A stretch of DNA of 64,000 nt, taken from NCBI GenBank assembly GCA_002633005.1, contig NMRA01000089.1, forward strand, positions 1 to 64,000, given 5' to 3'. This DNA comes from Phoronis australis (lineage: Eukaryota; Animalia; Phoronida). Position numbers and translations under genes: made by a program. The notes under the pieces are model-generated. The model was not told where the DNA came from, made no database searches, and was given only the letters and a program-made list of their open reading frames with translations. Shown here in pieces: positions 47,601-50,600 of the stretch; position 1 is the stretch's first letter; the number at the start of each line of letters is the position of its first letter.

Positions 47601-50600
47601 TTACGAGACCAGCGTAGTATTGAACGAAACTATTGTGCTGATAAAACTGTCACGAATGACGTAGCTACGTATCGTCTTCCAATCACTGGTCTCATTGCCG
47701 AACAACAGACAGATGGCTTCCAGCGTTAACTTGACCAGCAGCGGAGGGTTCTGCATCGAGCGAATCTCTACCAAGTCCTTCCGTTTGATGGACTTCACAG
47801 CTGCCATGATTAAAGTTTCAAAACATGGCCAAAAATGATAGTCAGATCTTGTGTGCAGGACATGTAAACTTTACCAAGAGCGGTGTAATAGATCAAAAGG
47901 CAAAGCATTGTCCGAGTAGTTCACTTTTTTCTTGTCAACTTTGACCCAAGACCTATGACCTGCAGCTATGCCTGTTGACCTATCAGTCCTTGCAAATGGT
48001 ACACAGACAATATGTCCTCAAGCAAAACAACAACACCAGGTGACACTGCACTTACCTGATGTTCTCCGTGTCGAAATTGACGATGGTTGGTATGAAGTTG
48101 TCACGCATGATGATGGAGCGCAATGCCTTCCACTCCAGCTCGGTCTCACCGAGCAGTGTGCAGATGGCCTCGATGGCCAGTTTGACAACAGGGGGCGGGT
48201 TGGGCAGGGAGCGTACCTCCACCAGCTGTTGTTTTTTGATAGACTTGACGGCTGGCGGGGGAACAGAACATGAAGCTGTGTCATAACCATGCAGTAAAGA
48301 AACCAACAACTACGGTAATCAAGTTTAGCAACAAAAATAAATTAAAAGACAGAAAATAAAAACAATAATGAATAAAATAGAGCAACACAAAGCATTGAAA
48401 TGCACCCATGACTGCACCGCAAACAATATGCCTTTAGGGGTGTTTGTTGGGACTCAAAATGGCCACCAGGATGCATCAAACCCATCTGGAAATGGGAAGG
48501 ACTTGTCACTACCCTAACTGAAATTTTATGAGAATCCGTCCAAGACCTTGGAAGACACACATAGCAAAGGATGTACAAAAAACAAACTGCCACTAGGAGG
48601 TGCCACAGTAATCGGATTAAACAAAAAATCAATGTCACTGCTATCACTAGGAGCAGTTTTGTGCCTGAAGAGGCAAATGCCAAAAATTAACTAAAAAACA
48701 AAAATGGCAGCTAGGTAGCATAGAATATGTATAATCTAACCAACAATAGCATAGTGCCATTTTCTCCTCAATAAAAACTAATTTGTCACCAAATTACATG
48801 GTAGTCTGTTAAGGACCTCTGGAGATAAACAAAAGAAACAAAAAGAAAATTGCCACCAGGGGACACCATAACACTTCGGTTTGGCAAATAAAGAAATGGA
48901 TAAGAAGACCCTGTAAGGGGTTGAAATACGGCCACAAATACAAAAATAGCTACTGGGGGTTGCCATAGTAGTTGAGCTCATCTGAAAACTTATGTTAGCC
49001 ATAGTCTTTCTAGCACAAACGCATCAGTATGAAACTCCTCAACTGTCGTCAGCTTCATGAGAGCACATGTGTCAGATCTCACTGCAGTCCTTCAAGGGAT
49101 CAAGGAGAAAAATCAGCGGACGCCACATGCCCAGACAGAGATGACGGCAAAATGTACCCACATATACATAAATGGGTACATAAAATAATTACATATTTAC
49201 TACCAGGTATCTATCAGTCTCTCAGCAACATAAATGTTTGGATTGCTTTTTGAAGTGCACAACACTTTTGAAAACAGAATAGAGTTAGAAACGAGCAAAG
49301 TTATTTTTACCATATAAAGGTGTCATGGTTATACATCTATTATGTGATTAAAACAAACAAATTAGCAATCAAATTAACAATTTAGTTAGTCATTATACAA
49401 ACTGAAAAATCCACAAAATCACTGGAGACAATGAACAATGAAGTTAGTCCACAAAACAACTTGGTCAAGGCAATAACAGTGACCAATATCGACGACTCAA
49501 AAAAAGTTATGAATTTCAAGCAGAACATGAATTTGAACACTCTTACAGCGCAGACTTCTGTTGAAACGAATCAAATTTGATGGACTTTAAAGTACCGGAC
49601 TACCAAGCAGCCACTGTGTGTTAACCAATACCTCCCCACCACACAGTTATATCTTACCAGCACCCACCTCCCCAATGTCACATCTAACCAGCACTCCACC
49701 TCCAACAGGGCCCTCACTCATCTTAGGGGAAAGGTGCTGCGCTTTTAAAGAGAGGAACTATTTCATAAGACGGGGATACGTTCCCCTCCCCGGCACCATT
49801 AATCATCACTTGGGCCTCAAGTCACCAAAAGTAATGTTATGTACTCGTTTCAAATCCTCACCTAATAGAGCAGACCACAGAAAAGTTTTAGTTTGAAATG
49901 CATTAGCTATCCACCCAACAGCCACCCACCCAACCAGTGAGTGTATGTCAGCTAACTCCACCCTCCCAATTAGTAACACCACCCACCCAACCAGTGAGTG
50001 CATGTCACCTAACTCCACCCACCTTGTCGAGCCTCAATGACAGCAGGCTCCACCTTGTCCAGGTCTGCCTGTACTATGACTTGTTTCTCCTGAATCTTCT
50101 TGGACTGCTCTTGCAGGTTCTGTTGAATCTCCTGTGAAGTCACTTTCCTCTTCTCAGCTTCCTGCTGATCTTTCACCTGAACACAATGTGAACGACGTGT
50201 GATTGATTCCATCACAGACTAGAAATGCCAGATGCCCCAACAAATAGATAAACAATTACGCAAGAAGATATTTCATTATCCAGGCTGCTAGGTGCCAAAT
50301 ATTACCGACTGAAATAACTGAAAAAGGTTTTCTCTTTACAATAAGCGCTACTGGCATACATGAGAGCCTACCAACATCACTCCATCTCTTTAATTTAAGC
50401 AACACCAGCACCATGTTCAGGGACTCATCTAGTGACTGTCTTACAGCAAGTTAAACACGGACAGTTTGGGTTGAGATATTAACACTCTGGCTGATAAATT
50501 ACATCAAATCTTACACTTAGTACCCTGATTTCAATTAATACCAGTCATAAACGATGTTTGTCAGATAATACATCACACAACTGCTGTTAGCAGCTAACGA

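Follow-up and report, generated by a model that had tools for sequence, protein, structure and literature searches.

Tandem, very likely mutually exclusive exons encoding the front of the microtubule-binding domain in a heavy chain gene of cytoplasmic dynein-1

The window (the whole 64-kb stretch of DNA analyzed) holds the 3' part of a heavy chain gene of cytoplasmic dynein-1 in which the exon encoding the front of the microtubule-binding domain (MTBD) is present in two tandem copies that, judging from their sequence, are real and under selection and very likely mutually exclusive. For this gene, what has been established comprises the anatomy of the exons and their fold, the constraint on the reading frame, the action of purifying selection and the existence of orthologous pairs. 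The reading we consider probable is that of an old tandem duplicate of which one copy enters each mRNA, yielding two heavy chains that would differ in the front of the foot and, subtly, in their grip, perhaps under control of an Rbfox-type switch. The features concerned are the following.

26526..63401, minus strand: cytoplasmic dynein-1 heavy chain gene, 3' part, with 43 exon matches covering about residues 2066-4639 of a gastropod model
50023..50176, minus strand: constitutive exon upstream of the pair, encoding the end of stalk coil CC1, ending in phase 1
48288..48293, minus strand: TGCATG, Rbfox-type element and candidate splicing switch, 42 nt upstream of exon a
48056..48251, minus strand: alternative exon a, the first copy, 196 nt, MTBD helices H1-H4
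47801..48055, minus strand: intron between exons a and b, 255 nt, GT...AG
47605..47800, minus strand: alternative exon b, the second copy, 196 nt, MTBD helices H1-H4 with H1 of the Lys-Asp type
45673..45790, minus strand: constitutive exon downstream of the pair, encoding MTBD H5-H6 and the first part of CC2, beginning in phase 2

An earlier note on this DNA had described two exons of exactly 196 nt at these positions, and a recheck in the sequence returned the same coordinates, CAG/GTAAGT borders, entry in phase 1 and exit in phase 2 for both. Splicing in silico likewise bore out that either a alone or b alone joins 50023-50176 to 45673-45790 without a stop, whereas inclusion of both copies, or skipping of both, results in a frameshift and stops. 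The copies are adjacent, homologous, equal in length and provided with compatible splice sites, properties among those by which mutually exclusive exons are recognized in PMC3228551. The pyrimidine tract of the exon b acceptor is the weaker one (0.55 vs 0.77), and no third copy of the exon was found within the 64-kb window. Both introns flanking the pair contain a dispersed repeat of about 40 nt (46526-48976, six copies, 63-100% alike), probably a degraded mobile element.

The amino acid identity of 37/66 between a and b was reproduced, and corresponds to 110/196 identical nucleotides; by codon position, 37, 51 and 24 of 66 sites agree at the first, second and third position, respectively. Four-fold sites agree in 4 of 16 cases, and maximum likelihood gives dN 0.40 and a dS of about 7, that is, saturated. 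As a neutral null, 10,000 copies of exon a were randomized to the observed third-position divergence: 3.1% of these stayed open, and the best kept its residues in 18 of 64 codons, vs 35 observed. The proposal that both copies are under selection is thus upheld by the open frame and by residues kept beyond neutral decay at saturated synonymous divergence.

The assignment of the host gene rests on the gastropod dynein-1 model, which aligns in order across 63401-26526 and has this one as the sole exon matched twice. A tree of 1,983 constitutive columns places the organism among protostomes (97/96); its position lies outside the arthropods and apart from both nematodes and both gastropods included, which is as far as the tree resolves it, and the exon type described below suggests a spiralian. 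Downstream of the dynein gene the minus strand holds protein kinase exons (Pfam Pkinase, window 1847-2583), which by motif resemble those of a tau-tubulin kinase or CK1-group enzyme, and an open stretch of 107 aa without Pfam match (window 19658-19978) that may be an exon of a further gene lying between these two. Short-period tandem repeats at 9076-9523, 38810-39384, 43896-44364, 45400-45540 and 51736-52044 create long spurious open reading frames (ORFs) in intergenic and intronic DNA.

Exons a and b map to human DYNC1H1 residues 3295-3360, the alignment of exon a itself spanning 3295-3359, and the best match of the pair, in sequence and in fold, is the dynein-1 MTBD between the stalk coils. 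Four helices, at residues 7-14, 21-33, 41-48 and 53-58, are present in the model predicted for exon b (pLDDT 84.7), whose superposition on MTBD structures from mouse and human gives TM 0.81-0.86; the mammalian DYNC1H1 MTBD (PDB 3ERR, 6RZB) is alike in fold to that predicted for exons a and b. Pfam gave at most sub-threshold MT-stalk matches for these short exons, and none for exon b. Helices are named here after the match to the mouse MTBD and the usual MTBD numbering. The segment is therefore the front of the dynein-1 MTBD, as had been proposed, with the refinement that the exon covers H1-H4 while H5 and H6 reside in the shared downstream exon.

Kept in both exons, the basic tubulin-contact residues of H1 and H3 among them, are the equivalents of K3300, K/R3301, E3306, R3308, K3336, R3339 and R3344. 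Tubulin contact has been implicated for mouse K3298 and K3299 (PMC4987762, PMC6629372), and mutation of human K3336 and R3344 cuts processivity (10.1101/092791). Because the known contact residues are kept in a and b, both feet are predicted to bind microtubules. The conserved difference between the copies is the replacement of Gln-Gln/His by Lys-Asp in H1, two residues right after the contact lysines, H1 being described as the only large mover of the MTBD upon microtubule binding (PMC6629372). The H2-H3 loop forms another patch of variation, at the place where the protofilament-bridging flap of DNAH7 sits (PMC6629372). Exon b has, in addition, lost the usually conserved residues E3330 and L3328 and the acidic residue at 3357.

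The earlier note had counted a net charge of 0 for a and +3 for b and, pointing at KKQQ and KRKD in H1, had suggested that affinity, processivity or tubulin preference might differ for this reason. The count is correct; its functional rationale does not hold. Residues 1-16, comprising H1, carry a net charge of +3 in both exons, because KRKD, compared with KKQQ, gains a basic residue and an acidic one, and the 0/+3 gap stems from a lack of acidic residues in two parts of exon b in this species, its H2-H3 loop and its tail. In orthologous pairs the net charges of first and second copy are 1/1, 2/1 and 1/2. With equal H1 charge and no such gap in the orthologous pairs, net charge was rejected as the cause of the a/b difference. 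It is rather the Lys-Asp change in H1, the moving helix, that may tune affinity or release, and we infer that the two feet would differ in one of these by way of fine tuning.

We define the Lys-Asp type as a downstream copy having Lys/Arg-Asp at exon positions 8-9, where exon b has Lys-Asp and dynein-1 usually has Gln-His. The signature occupies the second position in 6/6 cases (the window, P0001, L006, L034, the snail Batillaria and the flatworm Macrostomum) and is found in no first copy of the paired set; among the 136 domains of the best 120 of 323 full-length matches it occurs in 2, both second copies. The 49 non-Lys-Asp animal rows carry His, Gln or Asn at the Asp position and, in 47 of the 49, Gln at the position before it. 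Exon b furthermore retains all 16 columns that are invariant among Lys-Asp exons. Axonemal MTBDs (DNAH6, Chlamydomonas inner-arm chains) resemble exon b in having Asp three residues before the conserved H1 Glu, at exon b's place in 5/5 displayed alignments; axonemal dyneins, however, are encoded by separate genes and are about 22-24% identical to exon b, and the common Asp may represent convergence or reversion.

In a phylogenetic analysis of the exon itself (79 rows, to which the Batillaria and Macrostomum copies do not belong), b clusters with the Lys-Asp second copies (98/88), a clusters with those first copies that belong to L001-L005, and exon b is the longest branch of the tree (0.55 vs a median of 0.085). 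Pairwise comparison with Batillaria gives the same assignment, b being 68% identical to the second and 55% to the first copy, and a 71% to the first and 65% to the second. Against Macrostomum, a is closer to the first copy (60%, vs 44% for the second) and b is equally close to both (49% and 50%). The dN to orthologous second copies is 0.27-0.39 for b, vs 0.13-0.21 to first copies for a. AU tests on the 65 columns rejected neither sisterhood of a and b (p 0.267) nor a topology with all 15 second copies as one clade vs all 15 first copies (p 0.337). For how old the pair is and how often it arose, the evidence is therefore the common signature and copy order rather than the tree.

The pair is not peculiar to this genome. 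A search with exon b found a read-through ORF of another genome (P0001) with both copies in the same order, and tandem copies with intact splice sites are present in 14 of 79 related metagenome loci. Within 12 distinct pairs (11 loci plus the window) all exons measure 196 nt, except for three second copies of 199 nt. Gene models in which both copies are run together number 16 among the best 120 of 323 full-length matches, and stem from one snail, one flatworm, one sea spider, one mite, four insects and, with eight models, nematodes. The order of the window, a first copy followed by a Lys-Asp copy, recurs in P0001, L006, L034, Batillaria and Macrostomum. The ORFs P0006 and P0156, which we take to come from non-mammalian vertebrates, combine a mammal-like first copy with a divergent second copy, and the character of the second copy varies among spiralians, insects, arachnids, nematodes and vertebrate-type loci.

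By hand count about 40 of the 79 loci contain both flanking exons and a single copy, as does the mammal-type locus L078, with one copy between both flanks vs two in the window; no second version was found in the echinoderm, hemichordate, decapod, coral, placozoan and tick models among the members listed. From these single-copy loci and one-version models it follows that many animals manage without the pair. At three loci (L066:93-167, L067:112-186, L071:124-198) a weak match (13 bits) to the middle of the exon lies about 200 nt upstream of a single intact copy, and is possibly a decayed first copy. L007, L012 and L033 have exons of the first-copy type, and the presence in L033 of both flanking exons close by, without a second copy, suggests that the latter was lost in some lineage. 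Two further observations concern the protein matches. On a single contig of a tick lie two proteins annotated as dynein-1 heavy chains (P0419, P0420; 72 differing positions), which are either an exception to the single-gene rule or a haplotype artefact. The proteins P0007, P0008, P0085, P0088, P0098, P0101 and P0127 contain 2-5 tandem MTBD-like units with no evident motor, and could be stand-alone multivalent microtubule binders.

Evidence that the copies are used one at a time comes from annotations and assemblies of other species. The RefSeq isoforms X1 and X2 of the scorpion Centruroides vittatus (XP_067127567.1, XP_067127568.1) differ by 16 residues, all in this exon, and among X1-X8 of the termite Zootermopsis nevadensis there are three pairs of isoforms whose differences amount to 16 residues and one indel, again all in this exon. 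For the Lys-Asp type the evidence is one gene model, from Macrostomum, that joins the Lys-Asp copy alone to both flanks, the only such spliced transcript among the cluster members listed. P0279, P0418 and P0316 are uninterrupted ORFs of 4,641-4,648 aa on Logan contigs of 14-16 kb that carry either arachnid copy, and these contigs are probably spliced transcripts. The earlier proposal of a tandem, selected, mutually exclusive pair in the MTBD front thus finds support in orthologous pairs and in annotated one-at-a-time isoforms of other animals, and by analogy with these relatives splicing of one copy at a time would be expected in this gene as well.

As to how exclusivity would be achieved, steric exclusion of exons needs a very short distance from donor to branch point, about 50 nt. 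The inter-copy intron ranges from 51 to 1193 nt across the 12 pairs and is short only in L030 (51 nt) and L065 (65 nt); at this locus, where it measures 255 nt and is too long by the above threshold, steric exclusion was rejected. A scan for docking and selector sequences in the introns of this locus returned 20 short inverted pairs; no evident docking pair was among them. We propose that each mRNA keeps exactly one 196-nt copy through regulated exon choice combined with decay of the frameshifted double or skipped products, which the frameshift makes unproductive, and not through steric hindrance.

A candidate for the regulator is offered by TGCATG, which occurs upstream of the first copy in 3/3 Lys-Asp DNA loci, at 42, 75 and 63 nt, against a background of 2 of 43 window exons (exon a being one of the two) and 5 of 42 single-copy loci. 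This motif was chosen post hoc, after its sighting in the window, and the two remaining test loci are related, so that Rbfox control is to be taken as a lead only. Precedents exist in the Rbfox-regulated exclusive exons of egl-15 and unc-32 (PMC3585155); in C. elegans egl-15 an upstream UGCAUG represses the exclusive exon via Rbfox proteins (PMC3585155). The conserved upstream UGCAUG hints at Rbfox control of the present pair, in which case Rbfox bound upstream of exon a would repress a, and b would be used in some tissue.

A lophotrochozoan precedent, as mentioned in the earlier note, exists in Schistosoma mansoni, for which Pillmann et al. (2011, PMC3228551) predicted a mutually exclusive exon in SmDHC1 of equal length, with split codons at both ends and strong homology; the pair has proven far more widespread than the note suggested. 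SmDHC1 and the window share the dynein-1 heavy chain, identical-length exons and split codons. The text of PMC3228551 gives no position for the SmDHC1 exon and its two supplements yielded no match to dynein, and Kollmar (2016, PMC5100056) cites the exon as an alternative form of the motor domain. Since the flatworm Macrostomum has this very pair, the SmDHC1 pair is probably the same as that of the window. The arthropod Dhc isoforms in RefSeq (Zootermopsis, Centruroides) likewise differ only in this exon; they are automatic annotations without comment, and their second copies are devoid of the spiralian Lys-Asp H1 signature. In mouse and human, DYNC1H1 is reported as apparently a single isoform (PMC3824068). 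The muscle myosin heavy chain of arthropods is similar in that one motor gene has homologous, swapped exons in the motor domain, for which fine-tuning of mechanochemistry has been proposed (PMC3228551). Myosin, however, is another motor family on another track with many such clusters, whereas the window dynein has one pair, at the track interface, known from sequence. In the openly accessible literature covered, no paper came to light that locates the pair in the MTBD, surveys it or studies its function, and dynein does not appear in the main text of PMC9013439, PMC9741552 or PMC3692071. This kind of pair has thus been predicted once already and is silently present in annotations; what had gone unrecognized is its breadth and its position at the track interface.

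Several other explanations have to be weighed against that of two feet of subtly different grip. That the pair is an assembly artefact, arising from collapsed haplotypes or paralogues, is scarcely credible: at 56% nucleotide identity and with saturated third positions the copies are not allelic, and the same arrangement in many unrelated assemblies, orthologous pairs included, contradicts it. An unlikely alternative, though the foremost of these, is that both exons are spliced alternately but give near-equivalent feet, each copy being kept for its use in some tissue (subfunctionalized splicing). The two copies do agree in H1 net charge and in every tubulin-contact residue checked, the second copy changes character between lineages and many lineages have a single copy. 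Set against this is the Lys/Arg-Asp H1 signature, kept in second copies from flatworm to snail to this genome while mostly Gln followed by His, Gln or Asn is found elsewhere, which points to selection on a difference.

It is more improbable still that exon b was functional in ancestors and is silent or decaying in this lineage, under relaxed selection, as a pseudo-exon in the making. The long branch and unusual substitutions of b would fit, as would its higher dN to orthologous second copies and weaker acceptor, and the remnant-like weak matches in L066, L067 and L071 suggest that loss happens. A decaying exon is, however, at odds with a length of exactly 196 nt, an open frame and a consensus GTAAGT donor, and equally with conservation of all the Lys-Asp-invariant columns and a confidently predicted MTBD fold. 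We therefore retain as the preferred reading that one gene would give two heavy chains differing only in the front of the microtubule-binding foot.

A wider reading, which we put forward tentatively and hold to be rather doubtful, is that bilaterian dynein-1 comes in two track-binding forms from one gene, attained repeatedly or ancestrally, with a spiralian Rbfox switch and an axonemal-like Asp foot. On this view mammals would lack the two forms, which would persist in spiralians, insects, chelicerates, basal nematodes and non-mammalian vertebrates. If this is true, spiralians would have a motor specific to certain tissues that differs in affinity, release kinetics or load response. The tasks of dynein-1, which comprise mitosis, organelle positioning and long axonal transport, are usually explained by adaptors and accessory chains, the heavy chain itself being counted as one isoform, and swapping the track-binding foot by splicing would bring in a layer intrinsic to the motor, in an exon of which single residues (K3336, R3344) are known to alter processivity (10.1101/092791). 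Standard stalk-MTBD fusions and single-molecule assays offer a direct test of such a swap, and the pair constitutes a natural experiment, spanning many phyla, in the duplication of an exon at one site.
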